From the IMG/VR virus record IMGVR_UViG_2639762844_000003: a stretch of DNA of 47,664 bases; one strand, 5' to 3'. The DNA comes from a virus. Its lineage: Duplodnaviria > Heunggongvirae > Uroviricota > Caudoviricetes. Numbering within the stretch: the stretch's first letter is position 1; every line of letters starts with the position of its first letter. This document shows positions 5,069 to 9,821 of the stretch, piece by piece. The translations under genes and the position numbers were made by a program. The notes under the pieces are model-generated. The model did not search any database. It saw nothing but the letters and a program-made list of their open reading frames with translations, and was not told the DNA's origin.

Positions 5069-5644
5069 TTAAGGATTCATTAAGCAATGTCGCAACCACC
5101 AATAAATCCGCTTAAGAACATGAAAATTGATTACTGGTATAAAGCGCTTACAGTTGTTGGCGCTGCGTTGTTTGTCTTTAATGGAACGTCTTTTTTTGAC
5201 AGATATCCCGTTGTTCCATTGGGTTTTTTGTCCTCCGGCATCTTTTTTATTGGTTTGGGGGAGTGGATTAATCACCCTCTCAAAGTGAGATTTATTGGTC
5301 CTGGAGTTTGGACTCGTGGATATAATCGTTCTTCGTGCGCACTCGGTATCATCTTCGACATACTTGGTTGTTTCCTGATTGTTACAGGAGTCGTCAAGTT
5401 CTTCTGATGTAAAACCGCAAATGGGGCACGTAACGGGAATTTTGAAAAGCGTTTCTCCGGGTTCCAGAACAAAATTTTCTGCGGTCTGATTTTGCTTCTC
5501 ATATTTGTGCTCCGCGTCATTGTGAGAGCACATTCTTATTCTGAGTGCCTGTTTAAACTCACTGAAGCTGAGAGCTTCTTCGCCTTCGGCAAGGCCTTCG
5601 AAGTATTCTTCGTAAGCCTTTTCCATGATTGTGTCGAAATCCAT
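5069..5644 (-). CDS. Hypothetical protein in the ydfB/ydfC position; 3' half doubtful
   Basis: ATG at 5644 is coupled to the stop of the upstream ydfA-like gene (TGATATG) with a GGTGAG Shine-Dalgarno. The acidic N-terminal ~85 aa look protein-like; the K/R/N-rich C-terminal half overlaps a plus-strand membrane ORF and may be read-through. Confidence 0.35.
   Translation of the reverse strand: MDFDTIMEKAYEEYFEGLAEGEEALSFSEFKQALRIRMCSHNDAEHKYEKQNQTAENFVLEPGETLFKIPVTCPICGFTSEELDDSCNNQETTKYVEDDTECARRTIISTSPNSRTNKSHFERVINPLPQTNKKDAGGQKTQWNNGISVKKRRSIKDKQRSANNCKRFIPVINFHVLKRIYWWLRHCLMNP
5087..5407 (+). CDS. Small multi-pass membrane protein, hypothetical
   Basis: 106-aa ORF with about three hydrophobic helices; lies antisense to the 3' half of the 5069..5644 ORF, so only one of the two is likely real there. 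Confidence 0.35.
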   Translation: MSQPPINPLKNMKIDYWYKALTVVGAALFVFNGTSFFDRYPVVPLGFLSSGIFFIGLGEWINHPLKVRFIGPGVWTRGYNRSSCALGIIFDILGCFLIVTGVVKFF

Positions 5645-5645
5645 A

Positions 5646-5803
5646 TCACTCACCTGAGTTTCTTTCCAGCCAGCGACGGGCACCATTTTCGGTTTTAAAC
5701 GTTTTGCTTTTGGTATACGTCATCGCGGTGAACGTACCGTCCTGGTTGGGGAACACGCCACATACCAGAGATTCGCTGTTGCCAAGATCGATAGTATCCA
5801 TGC
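5646..5803 (-). CDS. ydfA: YdfA-like small protein (52 aa)
   Basis: ATG with GAGG Shine-Dalgarno 6 nt upstream; 52-aa product MDTIDLGNSESLVCGVFPNQDGTF...; first gene of the leftward operon below the repressor. Confidence 0.55.
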
Positions 5804-5993: not shown

Positions 5994-6401
5994 TTATTGA
6001 TGCTTGTTGCGTTTGCGAGCCTCTAATAGCTCGGTGAACAGGCGATTAAAATTCTCAACGCGGGCGCGGAGTTCGCTGAGTTGTGCTTGTTGCTCTGATT
6101 TAGGAAGTGCGCGATACAAACGCAGCATCTCTAACTCATCTTCCGATAAGTCTAAGGCACTATCGAGTGAAACAGGGGGAGCTGGTGTTTTGTCCTCGTC
6201 GCCAAACAGTATCCAGGTTGGTGAACATTGCAATACCTCGGCGAGGCGATGCAAATTTTGCCCGCGCGGGGCTGTATGGTCACTTTCCCATAATGAAATT
6301 GATGAGCCAGATACGCCAGCAGCTTTGCTTAAACCGTTTTGACTTAAGCCTACCTGCTTACGTCTTTCTCTAATGCGTTGACCTAAAGTTTTCTCGTTCA
6401 T
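5994..6401 (-). CDS. dicA: DicA-like HTH (XRE family) prophage repressor
   Basis: MNEKTLGQRIRERRKQVGLSQNGLSKAAGVS... helix-turn-helix and the ..LQCSPTWILFGDEDK.. motif recalled from DicA; diverges from a cro-like gene. An alternative upstream ATG at 6452 would give a leaderless start. Confidence 0.8.
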   Translation of the reverse strand: MNEKTLGQRIRERRKQVGLSQNGLSKAAGVSGSSISLWESDHTAPRGQNLHRLAEVLQCSPTWILFGDEDKTPAPPVSLDSALDLSEDELEMLRLYRALPKSEQQAQLSELRARVENFNRLFTELLEARKRNKHQ

Positions 6402-6423
6402 ATTTAGATATCTTAATAACCCT

Positions 6424-6466
6424 TGACTTGAGATTCCTTGAGTGATTAGCATTGAGAAAACTCAAT
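6424..6466 (+). promoter_or_regulatory. Rightward PR-like promoter with palindromic operator
   Basis: -35 TTGACT (6424-6429), 18-nt spacer, -10 TAGCAT (6448-6453), overlapped by the inverted repeat ATTGAG-AAAA-CTCAAT (6451-6466); GGAGG Shine-Dalgarno and cro-like ATG follow. Confidence 0.5.
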
Positions 6467-6478
6467 ATTGGAGGTGCG

Positions 6479-6706
6479 ATGTTTAAATCAGACGTAATTA
6501 ATTTTTACGGTACGAAAGCCAAAGTAGCGAAAGCTGCTGGCGTTGACCCATCTGCTGTTTCTCAATGGCAAGAGCTGGTTCCTGAAGGTCGCGCGATGCG
6601 TCTACAGGAGGCATCTGGCGGCGAGCTTCTGTATGATCCCAAGGTTTATGACGAATATCGTAAGACGAAGCGGGCGGGGCGGTTGAACAATGAAAATCAC
6701 TCCTGA
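6479..6706 (+). CDS. dicC: Cro/DicC-like small regulator
   Basis: 75-aa product from ATG at 6479, with GGAGG four nt upstream; divergent from the repressor. The ORF-track start at 6452 is a TTG inside the operator. Confidence 0.7.
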   Translation: MFKSDVINFYGTKAKVAKAAGVDPSAVSQWQELVPEGRAMRLQEASGGELLYDPKVYDEYRKTKRAGRLNNENHS

Positions 6707-7211
6707 ACAGGCTCGTGAGGCTCTGGATGCCTGGATATGTCGACCAGGAATGACACAGGAGCAGGCGACGATATTAATCACTGAAGCATTCTGGGCTTTG
6801 AAAGAGCGCCCGAACATCGATGTTCAGCGTGTCACAGATGAAGGTGGCGCGGTTGATCAGCGAGCGCTTGGCGTTAATCGAGTGAAGATATTCGAACGCT
6901 GGAAGGCTATCGACACTAGGGATAAGCGTGAAAAGTTCACGGCGCTAGTGCCTGCAATTATGGAGGCTATCCGGATTAATGATTTCAGGTTGTATCGTGA
7001 AATTAGTGACGGAAAAAGCATCACGTACATGATCGCCGGGTTAAACAAAGAATATGGCGATGTGGTGGAGTCCGGACTGCTTTTTGCTGATCCTGCCGTA
7101 GTGGATCGTGAAACTGACGAACTTATAGAAAAAGCAATTGCTTTCAAACTTGCGTATCGACAGCAATACAAACAAAAAGCTGGATGGAATTATGAGCCTT
7201 CTTTTTGCTGA
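6690..7211 (+). CDS. YdaT-like early regulator
   Basis: 173-aa ORF directly after the cro-like gene, the position held by YdaT/CII-type proteins in Rac-like immunity regions. Confidence 0.55.
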   Translation: MKITPEQAREALDAWICRPGMTQEQATILITEAFWALKERPNIDVQRVTDEGGAVDQRALGVNRVKIFERWKAIDTRDKREKFTALVPAIMEAIRINDFRLYREISDGKSITYMIAGLNKEYGDVVESGLLFADPAVVDRETDELIEKAIAFKLAYRQQYKQKAGWNYEPSFC

Positions 7212-8157
7212 ACGCCCACTGGTTATAAACACACAGCTTGCGATGAAGATTGGCTTAAATGAAGCCATTGTGTTGCAGCAGTTGCATTACTGGTTGAGAG
7301 ATACCAATTCCGGCATGGAATGTGATGGTGTTCGCTGGATTTACAACACAACGGAACAATGGCTGGAACAGTTCCCATTCTGGTCAGAGTCAACGTTAAA
7401 GCGCGCGTTTGCAAGTCTGAAAACGCTGGGGCTTTTGCGTTGTGAAAAGCTCAATAAATCAAAGCGCGATATGACCAATTTCTACACGATCAACTACGGG
7501 AGCGAGCTTTTAGATGGTGGCAAATTGAGCGAATCCATCGGTTTAAAATGCGCCGCTCCATCAGGTCAAAATGACACGATGGAAGAGGTCAAAATGAAAC
7601 GCTCCATTGGTTCAAAACGACCCAATGTCATCGGGTCAAAATGGCCTGATGATCTTACAGAGAATACAACAGAGATTACTACAGAGAATAAAAACACTTT
7701 TCGTCCGGAAGCTTCGCAACCGGACCCGCAGACCGCTGAACAGGATTTTTTAACCCGGAACCCCGACGCGGTTGTGTTTAGTGCGAAAAAACGCCAGTGG
7801 GGTAGCAGGGAGGATTTGGCGTGTGCGCAGTGGATTTGGGGGCGGATCGTGAACCTTTACGAACAGGCTGCCAGCGACGATGGAGAGATCATGCGACCAA
7901 AAGAGCCTAACTGGACAGCCTGGGCCAATGACGTGCGCACAATGCGGATGCTGGATGGCAGAAGCCACAGACAAATTTGCGAAATGTTTGGTCGGGTACA
8001 GCGAGATCAATTCTGGGTAAAAAACATCATGAGCCCGTCAAAACTCCGCGAAAAATGGGACGAACTGGTCATCCGCCTGGGACGTTCACCTGTACAGCGT
8101 TGTATGAATCATATTTCTGAACCGGATACAGAAATTCCGCCTGGTTTCAGAGGATAA
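7192..8157 (+). CDS. Phage replication initiation protein (replisome-organiser N-terminus, DnaT-like C-terminus)
   Basis: 321-aa product from the internal ATG at 7192; the coding sequence contains a five-copy iteron array, as lambda O does. Confidence 0.7.
   Translation: MSLLFAERPLVINTQLAMKIGLNEAIVLQQLHYWLRDTNSGMECDGVRWIYNTTEQWLEQFPFWSESTLKRAFASLKTLGLLRCEKLNKSKRDMTNFYTINYGSELLDGGKLSESIGLKCAAPSGQNDTMEEVKMKRSIGSKRPNVIGSKWPDDLTENTTEITTENKNTFRPEASQPDPQTAEQDFLTRNPDAVVFSAKKRQWGSREDLACAQWIWGRIVNLYEQAASDDGEIMRPKEPNWTAWANDVRTMRMLDGRSHRQICEMFGRVQRDQFWVKNIMSPSKLREKWDELVIRLGRSPVQRCMNHISEPDTEIPPGFRG
7540..7643 (+). repeat. Origin-like iteron array, GGT(C/T)AAAA(T/C)G x5
   Basis: Direct repeats at 7540-7550, 7564-7573, 7587-7596, 7609-7619 and 7634-7643, spaced about 23 bp, followed by an A-rich tract with ACAGAGA repeats (7650-7700). 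Confidence 0.55.
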
Positions 8158-8197
8158 GTTTTGATTTCAGGTCATGAGGTAATTTTAAGGGGGACTT

Positions 8198-8599
8198 GTG
8201 GCAAAAGTTTTTACACAAGAAGAGCGGGAAAAAATTAAAGGGCAGGTGGTGGAACTCGTGCGCCAGAGCGGTCGTGAGACGTTACGGCAACTGGAAGCTA
8301 AAACAGGTGCGACTAGATATCTGATGAGCGTTCTTGCCAGAGAGCTGGTAGCCAGTGGCGATGTATACAACTCCGGCTACGGGTTATTCCCGTCTGAACA
8401 GGCGCGTAAGGACTGGCAAAACGCCCGCAAAAAACTATCGAGGGCAAAGGTGAAGAAAACAGCTGTGGTTGATCCGGACCTTATCTGGTCGTTACCTGAT
8501 GGAGAAATACGTCGCTACGACAGTCGCCTAAACATAATCTGTCGCGAGTGCCGGATGAGTGAAGTTATGCAGCGCATACTGGCATTTTATCAGGGATAA
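8198..8599 (+). CDS. Hypothetical protein
   Basis: 133-aa ORF with GTG start preceded by AAGGGGGA; backbone GC content. Confidence 0.55.
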   Translation: MAKVFTQEEREKIKGQVVELVRQSGRETLRQLEAKTGATRYLMSVLARELVASGDVYNSGYGLFPSEQARKDWQNARKKLSRAKVKKTAVVDPDLIWSLPDGEIRRYDSRLNIICRECRMSEVMQRILAFYQG

Positions 8600-8696
8600 T
8601 GTTAGGTATTTTAGACGTTACTAGATTAAAAAGCATTAGTTCAGGAGTGAATTGACATTCTCATTTTTCATGGCACAGGGTAGATCTGGCGTGGTT

Positions 8697-8720
8697 GTCC
8701 GCTTTGTGCCAGAAGCGGAC
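8697..8720. repeat. Hairpin GTCCGCTT-N8-AAGCGGAC at the left edge of the AT-rich island
   Basis: 8-bp perfect stem; a near-identical stem (GTCCGCT-N10-AGCGGAC) occurs at 10404-10427 at the island's right edge. Confidence 0.5.
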
Positions 8721-8799
8721 GTTACAATACAATCACTATGCTAATGCGCATTGATATGTGATATAACAATAATCAACCGTTCAAAAAGGAGCATTTATA

Positions 8800-9821
8800 T
8801 GAGCAGGATGATAATTGATACAAATATTCTTTACTCACTAGTTGGTCTGTCGACAAACCAAAAAATAATTAACTCCCCTATAGATCAATTCAAATTATCC
8901 ATTACGACACCATCACTCATAGAAGTGATCTCTAAATATTGCAATGACTTAGGGGCTGTAAAAAAATGCATTAGCCCAATCATAAACGGAAATATTGAAC
9001 TAATTAGCATTGGTCATACTCCAATCTCAAATGAATTTCTTTATAGGTTGCATTTTTCAGACAAAATAGACGAAGTAAAAGATATTATTGATAATGTTAG
9101 AGCACTAAAAATATCTAGAGAGGCTGAGTTTTATAGGTTCATACTCATACTGGTTGTCTCTGGTTTGTTTGAGGTTATTAGAGAAGATGGATACAAGTTT
9201 GATAACGATGTACAAAATCAAAGTCAACTTAGTCTTGTGCAGACTCTACTTGAATCTAATATGGAATTAATTTTAGACTTCTTTAAAGATGAGTTGCGGA
9301 ATGGATATATTAATGGAAATGAGCAGCAATCAGCTTTGAAAGCTTTTGAAACCATGCTTATCGGACTCCTACATGCTTTTCATGTCAACTATCATATGAT
9401 TAAAACTGACACAGTTAACATTTCCGGAAGCCAAGACAGACTCAAAAATCTGTATGATAGTATAAAAAATGATAATTTTGATAAAAAGTTTAAAAAATAT
9501 ATGGAGAATCCAATATCCCTTGCCTGCAAAAAAAAACACGAATCAGTAGTTGATAACTACCTGAAAGAAATGGAGGAGGGGATTTCTGGCGCTCGTGGGC
9601 TTACTAAGAATTCGTTGAGCTTTCTAATGAGCAAGGTTGAGGATGCATATAAAAATGGTCGTAAATTACGAAAAAATGACATATTTGACTTTCTAATAGT
9701 TATTTCTCTAAATATGCCAGACACTTTGATTTTAACACTTGATAAAGGTTTTTTAAAAGACCTTAAAGATCTTCACCCTAACAGCTATAAAAAGTGTCTG
9801 GATTTCGGTTTTGTAAATTAA
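8800..9821 (+). CDS. AT-rich cargo protein, 340 aa, unknown function; N-terminus weakly PIN-like
   Basis: AAGGAG Shine-Dalgarno then ATG at 8800; strongly AT-biased I/N/K/D-rich codon usage unlike the prophage backbone; N-terminal MIIDTNILYSLVG resembles a PIN first strand with its acidic residue; no other motif recognised. Confidence 0.6.

Follow-up and report, generated by a model that had tools for sequence, protein, structure and literature searches.

Origins within initiator genes and the loading of DnaB

In phage lambda, the replication origin (ori-lambda) lies inside the gene of the initiator protein O, where an array of four iterons starts at nt 349. In Bacillus phage SPP1, the replisome organiser G38P also has its binding repeats (oriL) inside its own gene; G38P is of another protein family, and its partners, the G39P loader and the G40P helicase, are also encoded by the phage. 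In the ydaS-ydaT-ydaU-ydaV-ydaW module of the E. coli K-12 Rac prophage, the YdaU protein, which has a DUF1376 body and ends in …VSLPDSAIPPGFRG, is followed by YdaV, a DnaC homologue. A three-part layout has been described for the plasmid initiators of the RepA_N family. In pSK41 Rep, an N-terminal domain (NTD) of ∼120 aa binds repeats located centrally in its own gene, the origin encodes a disordered and dispensable linker, and a host-specific C-terminal domain (CTD) contacts host replication proteins (PMC5703833). Swapping of such NTD-plus-origin cassettes has been documented for pPR9 (PMC5703833).

Two further systems concern the C-terminal end of the initiator. DopC, a chromosomal, domesticated O-like protein with an HTH domain, has the C-terminal motif of DnaT where O proteins usually have their own C terminus; it is paired with the P-like protein DopE, and no iterons have been reported for this pair (Brézellec et al. 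2017, PMC5509034). This pairing shows that a DnaT-like C terminus does not strictly preclude a P-like partner. DnaT itself (primosomal protein i) is encoded in E. coli directly upstream of dnaC. In the 2026 cryo-EM structure of the preprimosome, which included only DnaT residues 84 to 153 and left out the C-terminal tail, the DnaT CTD docks on the HD2/CTD portion of PriA via a conserved hydrophobic interface. The DnaT N-terminal domain was proposed there as the recruiter of DnaB/DnaC, and the handover of DnaB/DnaC from DnaT to the restart primosome was stated explicitly to be unknown (PMC13377028).

The initiator gene and its neighborhood

The DNA stretch analyzed here (the window, 47.6 kb) is an E. 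coli lambdoid prophage. Its initiator gene (positions 7192 to 8157, plus strand) is directly preceded by the immunity and early-right-operon region (5994 to 7211), which comprises a repressor gene on the minus strand (5994-6452), a Cro/YdaS-like gene (6452-6706), and a cII/YdaT-like gene (6690-7211), the last of them directly upstream of the initiator gene. On the other side, a 40-bp spacer (8158 to 8197) separates the initiator gene from a DUF977 (YdaW-like) gene at 8198 to 8599 on the plus strand (PF06163, E = 6e-27; phrog_142). The product of the latter gene carries, by visual inspection, the C-terminal motif of lambda Ren, and the respective PHROG family is named “Ren-like.”

This neighborhood resembles both the lambda gene order, cro-cII-initiator-(P)-ren-like, and that of Rac, with its flanking YdaS/Cro-like, YdaT-like, and DUF977/YdaW-like genes and an initiator that ends in PD..IPPGFRG and precedes the DUF977 gene. 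However, the body of YdaU is not built of the NTD and CTD described below, and the window has no counterpart of the DnaC homologue that follows YdaU.

The 321-aa initiator belongs to phrog_391 (“replication initiation O-like,” E = 1e-92) but has no match in Pfam or NCBIfam. It is 100% identical to a protein of phage mEp460_ev081 labelled “Primosomal protein I,” the RAST label for this very common Enterobacterales prophage protein, which is “hypothetical” in NCBI. The RAST label is a miscall. It reflects a resemblance of the C-terminal tail only, since the DNA-binding three-helix domain of DnaT (PF17948), which scores 3.6e-21 in E. coli DnaT, was not found by the Pfam search of the initiator and hhalign aligns the tail alone.

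The iteron array

Within the initiator gene, positions 7512 to 7652 contain five clear 25-bp iterons and a degenerate one, 23 bp apart, with a unit of the form ccatcRggtc-AAAAT-gaccYgatgg. The clear units are iteron 1 (7535 to 7559, ccatcggttt-AAAAT-gcgccgctcc), iteron 2 (7558 to 7582, ccatcaggtc-AAAAT-gacacgatgg), iteron 3 (7581 to 7605, ggaagaggtc-AAAAT-gaaacgctcc), iteron 4 (7604 to 7628, ccattggttc-AAAAC-gacccaatgt), and iteron 5 (7628 to 7652, tcatcgggtc-AAAAT-ggcctgatga). The dyad symmetry involves 8 of 10 arm positions in units 2, 4, and 5 and is poor (4 to 5 of 10) in units 1 and 3. Cores of the GGT(C/T)AAAA(T/C)G type start at 7540/41, 7564, 7587, 7609/10, and 7634, and a repeat search recovered the five copies at spacings of 23, 23, 23, and 24 bp. 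The initial annotation had placed repeats of this type, at ∼23-bp spacing, within the initiator coding sequence, and the cores are found where it put them. Its count of five holds for the clear units and misses a weak sixth, iteron 0 (7512 to 7536, core GGCAAATTG), which lies in the 23-bp register at a position occupied by a good iteron in two relatives (L009 and L005).

The array stands out from the rest of the window. It contains three exact copies of the 10-mer GGTCAAAATG, and both strands of the 47.6 kb hold no further one. In a search for periodic chains (10-mers with at most 2 mismatches, periods between 12 and 40, and 1 bp of jitter), a chain of five with a period of 23 was found starting at 7541, as opposed to a longest chain of three in 100 dinucleotide-preserving shuffles; no second periodic array of this length was detected anywhere in the window. 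A cruder cluster count that disregards periodicity is weaker, with the observed value reached in 4 of 200 shuffles. A scan of positions 6400 to 8700 for DnaA-box and IHF consensus sequences returned a single DnaA-like box, at 8209, outside the proposed origin.

The iteron cores occupy all three codon positions, so the constraint acts on the DNA rather than on a peptide repeat. Natural initiator variants of 290 aa are shorter by exactly 31 aa, corresponding to a loss of 93 bp between iterons 1 and 5.

The CAGAG 12-mer array

The iterons are followed by three tandem 12-mers, TACAGAGAATAC, AACAGAGATTAC, and TACAGAGAATAA, at positions 7654 to 7693, which form a candidate DNA-unwinding element. This tract has the top TRF score in the window, the lowest GC content (0.33), an AT skew of +0.35, and a purine-rich sequence. 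With an AT content of 67%, it is only moderately AT rich. Among the 40-mers of the initiator gene it has the lowest stability, and it ranks at the 98th percentile of the window. The A-rich tract reported previously after the iterons is thus real, but it is not mere A-rich DNA, since it represents a conserved, sequence-specific 12-mer array.

The CAGAG array was present in 39 of the 59 genes that encode this NTD (54 genome loci and five phage genes), across phyla. Judging from codon usage, it is conserved at the DNA level. The Glu codon at the CAGAG repeat positions is GAG in 81 of 85 cases, compared to 37% elsewhere (binomial p = 2e-30, a value that ignores shared ancestry), and a Pseudomonas phage retains the ACA/ACT codons in its array despite a GC content of 60%. 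The 12-mers are read in one frame throughout, as TENT/TEIT (T-E-x-T), so some protein-level constraint is possible as well. The array may act in a sequence-specific manner, as an element for unwinding or for single-stranded DNA binding that is tied to one initiator domain from Enterobacterales to Firmicutes.

Domain architecture of the initiator

The initiator consists of an NTD, an origin-encoded linker, a lambda-O-type CTD, and a DnaT-like tail. The NTD (aa 1 to 115, encoded at 7192 to 7536, plus strand), presumed to be an iteron-binding winged helix, shows 42 to 75% identity to initiators from phages of Enterobacterales, Bacillaceae, Staphylococcus, and Pseudomonas. The AlphaFold2 model of the protein, built from a shallow alignment and having a mean pLDDT of 52.7, served solely to place the domain boundaries and to look for matches of the NTD, which were weak. 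In this model, the NTD has an H-H-E-E-H-H-E-E pattern (pLDDT 55 to 75), residues 109 to 174 are predicted to be disordered, the CTD is helical, and the tail is disordered. The best structural matches of the NTD, all of them weak, are the NTDs of RepA_N plasmid initiators and DnaD-N; the top Foldseek matches are 4pql, 4pt7, and 5kbj (E from 0.03 to 0.1, from the low-confidence model). The three-part layout is also shared with pSK41 Rep. However, RepA_N proteins are encoded on plasmids rather than phages, the CTD of pSK41 Rep binds DnaG, and the RepA_N domain (PF06970) gives zero sequence matches in the initiator. Similarly, the Phage_rep_O domain (PF04492) was not matched at E values up to 10 in a search that assigned 5.7e-36 to lambda O.

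The CTD (aa ∼170 to 295, positions 7699 to 8076, plus strand) is homologous to the P-interacting CTD of lambda O. It aligns with aa 135 to 270 of lambda O with 34% identity (tblastn, E = 3e-23) and, over aa 170 to 294, has 36.8% identity to the O proteins of lambda, 21, and 434. A profile search of the PDB with a nine-sequence alignment returned nothing useful.

The features of the locus closely parallel those of lambda. In both, the origin lies inside the initiator ORF (aa ∼115 to 165) at the junction of two domains, the 4 to 6 dyad-symmetric iterons share a TCAAAA(C/T)G core and a spacing of 20 to 24 bp, and a purine-rich, easily melted AT tract is found on the promoter-distal side of the iterons. 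The prophage array starts at nt ∼321 to 344 of the gene (aa ∼108 to 115), and the CTDs are homologous. Differences include the arms of the iterons, the nature of the AT tract, which in the prophage is the specific 12-mer array, the absence of a P gene in the prophage, and the C-terminal ends, DnaT-like in the prophage as opposed to lambda-like (…DWIYGVDL). Taken as a comparison of sequences, the common position, dyad units, core, spacing, melting tract, and homologous CTD support the earlier proposal of a lambda-like origin within the initiator gene: positions 7512 to 7693, in the linker-coding part, very probably constitute a theta-type replication origin.

Exchange of origin cassettes

Iterons and the CAGAG array co-occur with the NTD in phages of Enterobacterales, Bacillaceae, Staphylococcus, and Pseudomonas and in a Campylobacterota metagenome-assembled genome (MAG), but they are not co-inherited with the CTD. 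Iterons with a CAAAWTG center were found behind the same NTD in loci from Klebsiella, Providencia, Edwardsiella, and Gilliamella, as well as from Staphylococcus, Geobacillus, Anoxybacillus, Bacillus, and the Campylobacterota MAG. Their arms are clade specific yet symmetric: GGTC/GACC, GTGC/GCAC, ACTC/GAGT, or GTTC/GAAC. Of 80 viral contigs that share no less than 91% identity with the window in the CTD and tail, 36 combine this NTD with these iterons, and 44 have another NTD, nearly all of the HTH_36 type; in L052, the one contig of the latter kind that was inspected, the repeats are different and 15 bp long. The NTD thus forms one cassette with the origin. The loci counted here and below share ancestry and are not phylogenetically independent.

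The DnaT-like tail and the helicase loader

The last 20 residues of the initiator (…SEPDTEIPPGFRG) match the extreme C terminus of the host DnaT. The tail (aa 301 to 321, VQRCMNHISEPDTEIPPGFRG, positions 8092 to 8154, plus strand) aligns end to end with the last 20 residues of E. coli DnaT (QRCMNHISEPDTEIPPGFRG) with 13 of 20 identities, and it occupies the extreme C terminus in both proteins. The match is short, with E values of 0.03 against the whole PDB sequence set and 2e-7 in a pairwise comparison. Homology of the entire lambda-O-type CTD to a DnaT domain was considered and rejected, as hhalign aligned the tail alone, with a probability of 37%. The N-terminal domain of DnaT was not found in the initiator either. 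The two proteins also differ in targeting, as the initiator is directed to a sequence-specific origin and DnaT to PriA-marked forks.

With the consensus (R/K)(R/x)D(V/I)N.(V/I)S.PD..IPPGFRG, this tail is also found at the end of numerous unrelated phage initiators, YdaU of Rac among them, and is the most conserved hydrophobic stretch common to DnaT and the phage proteins. Two pattern scans yielded ∼200 long ORFs ending in IPxGFRG, with at least 10 architectures; a DnaC-like gene was found downstream of 27 of these and a P gene or a DnaB-type helicase gene downstream of none. A literature search on the tail motif, solo initiators, and lambdoid O proteins without P returned nothing on the motif; an earlier mention in Weigel & Seitz 2006 is possible.

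No homologue of lambda P (PF06992) and no DnaC-like or DnaB-like gene was found anywhere in the 47.6-kb window, in which the sole ORF with a canonical Walker A motif (G-x4-GK[ST]) is the terminase. This motif search misses the GKN box of the YdaV-type DnaC homologues, so the absence of the latter is deduced from the gene order: a ydaV-type gene does not fit into the 40-bp gap (8158 to 8197), and no ORF of the early region is a candidate. The initial annotation was therefore right in noting that no separate DnaC- or P-like loader gene follows. In the close relative HannyBb, no helicase, loader, or primase is annotated. The DUF977 gene was considered as the missing loader and rejected, as it is present with or without P or DnaC-like genes. 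A 262-aa “Walker A” ORF downstream of one tail-bearing family proved to be a false positive, being ParB-like.

Comparison of the relatives shows which loaders accompany the tail. In 34 of the 80 contigs with near-identical initiators, a YdaV-like gene, recognized by a BLAST comparison with E. coli DnaC, begins 4 nt after the initiator stop codon, in the position of the 40-bp spacer of the window, which rules out a simple rule that the tail signifies no loader at all. Loader-less modules account for the remaining 46, for all 79 SfIV-like loci, and for ∼175 of the 202 ORFs from the pattern scans. Such solo modules are found in isolated phages (HannyBb, mEp460_ev081, PhiR42_1, and SfIV), and plaque formers or inducible phages with loader-less modules include HannyBb, SfIV, Klebsiella phage VIPKPNMC05, and mEp460 derivatives. 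In the three loci (L013, L224, and L226) that combine the same NTD, origin, and CTD with a lambda-like tail (…DWNSADGWEDVL or …HWNSPEAWENTL), the next gene is in every case Phage_lambda_P. A search for related loci with a lambda-tailed CTD as the query returned SfIV-like, tail-bearing loci only. In the loci surveyed, the loader gene after a tail-bearing initiator, where there is one, encodes a DnaC homologue; lambda P or a DnaB-type helicase was never seen in this position. The suggestion that the C terminus of the initiator acts in place of a loader, or that the phage uses host DnaC, gains support from the copy of the DnaT tail and from the DnaC-type loading predicted for the relatives; use of the host DnaC/DnaB by this phage is likely.

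Proposed mechanism and alternative explanations

Overall, the locus probably represents a loader-less variant of the lambda-style origin that employs host DnaC through mimicry of the DnaT tail. Judging from the gene order, transcription of the early rightward operon would pass cro and cII before reaching the initiator gene. The five or six palindromic 25-bp iterons, spaced 23 bp apart, would then be occupied by dimers of the winged-helix NTD, as suggested by their dyad symmetry and strict co-inheritance with the NTD. The resulting nucleoprotein complex could melt the adjacent purine-rich CAGAG array, where the stability of the gene is at its minimum and the DNA sequence itself is conserved. 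With no phage loader, the lambda-O-type CTD and the disordered DnaT-like tail would recruit the host DnaB-DnaC, a role suggested by the distribution of the tail and ascribed to P in lambda and to the YdaV-type DnaC in Rac-type modules. More tentatively, and with some doubt, the tail can be viewed as a portable peptide for recruitment of the helicase loader, common to DnaT, Rac YdaU, and at least 10 architectures of temperate-phage initiators, that docks DnaC or DnaB-DnaC; on this view, origin-bound solo initiators such as the present one would mimic DnaT to load the host helicase.

Even if the origin is assigned correctly, the tail could dock the initiator on PriA, so that the helicase would be loaded via the PriA-PriB-DnaT restart primosome rather than by direct contact with DnaC/DnaB. 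Such a route would fit the conserved hydrophobic interface between the DnaT CTD and PriA HD2/CTD in the cryo-EM structure (PMC13377028), since no other hydrophobic stretch common to DnaT and the phage proteins is conserved as well as the tail. However, that structure was built from DnaT residues that do not include the tail, the initiator has neither the DNA-binding domain nor the N-terminal domain of DnaT, and the genomic partner of the tail, where there is one, is a DnaC homologue. Loading through PriA therefore appears unlikely, and the chances that the tail is a docking element for DnaC or DnaB-DnaC, and not, for example, for PriA, are slightly less than even. Another explanation would make the locus a crippled Rac-type (YdaU-YdaV-like) module that has lost its dnaC homologue and depends on the loader of a helper prophage, with the tail as a relic. 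The ydaV-like gene located between the initiator and DUF977 genes in 34 of the 80 relatives, and the clean 40-bp gap in the window, would be expected from such a deletion, but loader-less modules are in the majority in each of the three samples and occur in plaque-forming or inducible phages, which makes this explanation very unlikely.

The remaining alternatives question the origin itself. Plasmid iterons also serve in handcuffing and autorepression, and the repeats could likewise be initiator-binding sites for autoregulation, copy control, or incompatibility, with the true origin elsewhere. This is most improbable in view of the conserved, easily melted element that flanks the array, as in real origins, the location at a position homologous to the proven origins of lambda and pSK41, and the lack of any other periodic array in the window. 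Still less can be said for repeats that have no function in the DNA and simply encode a low-complexity, repetitive peptide linker. The region does encode a predicted disordered linker, and the 12-mers always read T-E-x-T; nevertheless, iteron cores fall in three frames, the DNA motif is kept where the peptide is not, codon bias at CAGAG is strong, and the palindromic arms co-vary between clades. These comparisons effectively refute the peptide explanation for the iterons and leave it extremely improbable as a whole.

Implications for lambdoid phages and the restart primosome

The origin described here has a textbook architecture, and the main value of its recognition is in the correct annotation of the initiator. 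The CAGAG 12-mer array within the A-rich tract has previously gone unremarked. The cassette made of the NTD, iterons, and 12-mers is exchanged independently of the one made of the CTD and tail, and is a natural, clear-cut case of origin specificity that is modular, in phages of both Gram-negative and Gram-positive hosts. The distribution pattern of the tail bears on how DnaB is loaded onto the origins of loader-less lambdoid phages and on how DnaT passes DnaB/DnaC to the restart primosome. As the tail is common to DnaT, YdaU, and hundreds of phage initiators, with a DnaC homologue or nothing as its genomic partner, both questions are reduced to a simple experiment with a peptide and its partner. 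If the proposed role of the tail is true, the missing link in the recruitment of DnaB/DnaC to the restart primosome would be the tail of DnaT, instead of or besides its N-terminal domain.

Initiator Gene and Its Neighborhood

The 6400-8700 region of this E. coli lambdoid prophage is 100% identical to phage mEp460_ev081 and 97 to 98% identical to HannyBb and PhiR42_1, both isolated phages. A repressor gene (5994-6452, minus strand) is followed on the plus strand by a Cro/YdaS-like gene (6452-6706), a cII/YdaT-like gene (6690-7211), the gene for the 321-aa initiator (7192-8157), and a DUF977 or “Ren-like” gene (8198-8599). In some E. coli records, 448-aa proteins (P0002 to P0004) combine a YdaT_toxin domain with the complete initiator, which suggests that the cII-like and initiator ORFs, overlapping at 7192-7211 in the window, have been fused or frameshifted there. 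An AT-rich insert separating DUF977 from the nin/Q region holds a 356-aa ORF (8751-9821) with no match in Pfam, PHROGs, NCBIfam, or PADLOC, a candidate moron or defense gene; this region differs in HannyBb and apparently also in mEp460_ev081, where another gene is annotated. A 205-aa early-left ORF (5069-5686, minus strand) has no PADLOC match and is “hypothetical” in the HannyBb annotation. The prophage module also appears, at 99 to 100% identity, in contigs assigned to Veillonella parvula (L216), Bacillota (L218), and Collinsella (L235) MAGs, most likely through metagenome misbinning into these Gram-positive or Negativicutes MAGs rather than host range.

The initiator belongs to PHROGs family phrog_391 (“replication initiation O-like”; E value of 1e-92) and has no match in Pfam or NCBIfam; its many homologs are “hypothetical” at NCBI, and RAST labels it “Primosomal protein I.” Judging from sequence comparisons, it is a two-domain chimera. 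Residues 170 to 294 are homologous to the C-terminal domain (CTD) of lambda O (E values of 4e-18 to 3e-23). The N-terminal domain (NTD) of 115 residues is not lambda-like (a PF04492 search of the initiator gave no match) and shares 42 to 75% identity with phage or prophage initiators from Klebsiella, Providencia, Pseudomonas, Staphylococcus, and Bacillaceae.

Iterons and the 12-Mer Array

The repeats that the initial annotation had placed inside the initiator gene were confirmed at the same positions. Five clear iterons (7535-7652), spaced at 23 bp, share the 25-bp unit ccatcRggtc-AAAAT-gaccYgatgg and are preceded by a degenerate copy (7512-7536); in three of them, dyad symmetry reaches 8/10. 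By a periodicity-aware statistic, this five-repeat chain of period 23 is the longest in the window, and 100 dinucleotide shuffles gave no periodic chain longer than three; a cruder cluster count was marginal, being equaled in 4 of 200 shuffles. The iteron cores fall in all three codon positions, so the constraint acts on the DNA rather than on the peptide. The array begins at about nucleotides 321 to 344 of the gene, near the position at which lambda O carries four iterons with a TCAAAACG core (from nucleotide 349, 20 to 24 bp apart). Natural 290-aa variants (P0015, P0017, P0018, P0021, and P0022) have lost in frame exactly 31 aa (93 bp), from iteron 1 to iteron 5, and retain a single hybrid iteron. 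Such a loss is typical of recombination between direct DNA repeats, here apparently two iterons, and these variants may be origin-defective prophages, comparable to the lambda ori- deletions. Iteron number among relatives varies from 3 to 6.

The A-rich tract previously reported next to the iterons consists of three tandem 12-mers (7656-7693), which form the GC minimum and the least stable 40-mer of the initiator gene. In a search of 59 genes with the window-type NTD (54 genome loci and five phage genes), from Enterobacterales, Gilliamella, Bacillaceae, Clostridium, alphaproteobacterial and Campylobacterota MAGs, and a 60%-GC Pseudomonas phage, 39 had (A/C)CAGAGAWTAC units 3' of the iterons, in tandem arrays of two to five copies; related CAGAG units occur in Staphylococcus caprae. 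Glu is encoded by GAG in 81 of the 85 peptide-defined xE.. repeats versus 37% in the rest of these genes (binomial p = 2e-30, uncorrected for shared ancestry), and the codon before it ends with CA in 83 of the 85. This codon bias indicates conservation of the array at the DNA level. Loosely comparable to the oriC 13-mers or DnaA-trios, it would represent a sequence-specific unwinding element. The array grows and shrinks like a tandem repeat with its sequence retained (four units in L216, five in the Edwardsiella prophage L227). In lambda ori, an inverted repeat just past the AT-rich tract (L010:2505-2535) holds GTCAGAGAAT … CCTCTGAC; these two inverted CAGAG cores could be a chance likeness or a common element. 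The sole DnaA-box-like site in 6400-8700, TTTTACACA (8209-8217), is found early in the DUF977 gene, ∼520 bp from the 12-mers.

Iterons with a CAAAWTG center and 21- to 24-bp spacing usually follow the NTD where it occurs; their arms are clade specific yet symmetric (GGTC/GACC, GTGC/GCAC, ACTC/GAGT, and GTTC/GAAC). Among 80 viral contigs with CTD and C-terminal tail at least 91% identical to those of the window, 36 combine them with the window-type NTD and iterons and 44 with another NTD, nearly all of the HTH_36 type; the only one of these 44 examined (L052) has unrelated 15-bp repeats. SfIV-type and L130-type initiators each have their own repeat arrays. The co-occurrence of NTD and iterons, together with NTD replacement above a constant CTD and tail, implies two separately exchanged cassettes, one made up of the NTD and iterons and the other of the CTD, in agreement with the classical genetics of lambda, phi80, and 82 hybrids. 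Matching cassette exchange has been described in the RepA_N plasmids pSK41 and pPR9 (PMC5703833).

DnaT-Like Tail and Helicase Loading

No lambda P homolog is encoded in the window, and only a 40-bp gap follows the initiator gene, in line with the earlier observation that a loader gene is missing. Across the window, canonical Walker A motifs (GK[ST]) were found only in the terminase, a search that is blind to the GKN box of YdaV-type DnaC homologs. The absence of a YdaV-type gene follows instead from the short gap, the lack of a candidate early-region ORF, and the annotation of the complete HannyBb genome, which lists no helicase, loader, or primase. DUF977 was rejected as a substitute loader, as it occurs with or without P or DnaC-like genes.

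In a PDB sequence search, the last 21 residues of the initiator matched the extreme C terminus of DnaT, with 13 of 20 residues identical to E. coli DnaT in an end-to-end alignment; hhalign aligned this tail alone. The AF2 model shows the tail as disordered; in DnaT, the Pfam domain stops at residue 153, short of the tail. Scanning viral contigs with two degenerate DNA patterns for IPxGFRG-stop retrieved about 200 ORFs of 200 to 367 aa in at least ten architectures, with window-type, HTH_36, or DUF1376-like NTDs and lambda-O-type, Phg_2220_C, or true DnaT domains as CTDs. One phage protein (L163:9308-10180) carries the motif twice in tandem (…RDINQLPGPDKQIPAGFRGARQERDINQISEPDSTIPPGFRG), as a modular linear motif might be. 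In the K-12 Rac prophage, the DUF1376 protein YdaU (L357:2620-3477) has the C terminus …VSLPDSAIPPGFRG, with the DnaT-like tail …LLRQVNTVSLPDSAIPPGFRG. Its gene is followed by those for the DnaC homolog YdaV (L357:3484-4230) and the DUF977 protein YdaW, so that the ydaU-ydaV pair mirrors the host dnaT-dnaC pair, in which dnaT lies directly 5' of dnaC.

Neither lambda P nor a DnaB-type helicase was found downstream of tail-bearing initiators in any of the sets compared. DnaC-like genes followed in 34 of the 80 contigs sharing CTD and tail and for 27 of 107 long ORFs from the AGR-codon pattern scan, but for none of ∼95 long ORFs from the CGN-codon scan, 79 tail-bearing SfIV-like loci, or 11 tail-bearing species-representative genomes. 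In this last set, a loader of any kind accompanied 0 of 11 tail-bearing versus 18 of 41 other loci (Fisher p = 0.0095). Where the tail is lambda-like and the NTD, origin, and CTD match those of the window (L013, L224, and L226), Phage_lambda_P comes next, overlapping the stop codon, in 3 of 3 cases, and other-tailed relatives (mostly Firmicutes and one Gilliamella) have DnaC/DnaI-like loaders or DnaB-like helicases. That the tail simply means no loader was rejected, given the YdaV-like genes after tail-bearing initiators.

The simplest reading of these gene associations is that the tail would mark DnaC-type loading, the phage either carrying its own DnaC or, as in the window, using that of the host. 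Docking of the tail on PriA is a serious rival: a 2026 preprimosome structure, built from DnaT residues 84 to 153 only, has the DnaT CTD sitting on PriA, and its authors, who describe how DnaB/DnaC is recruited as unknown, favor the DnaT N-terminal domain (PMC13377028). DopC (PMC5509034), which is O-like, bears a DnaT_C motif, and has a P-like protein as its partner, is a precedent for the tail and also a partial counterexample to the partner pattern that points to DnaC-type loading. The initial annotation correctly identified a lambda-style origin, whose functional steps are all inferred here; it is set apart by its foreign NTD and accompanying iteron family, conservation of the CAGAG array, and a loaderless design with a DnaT-type tail.
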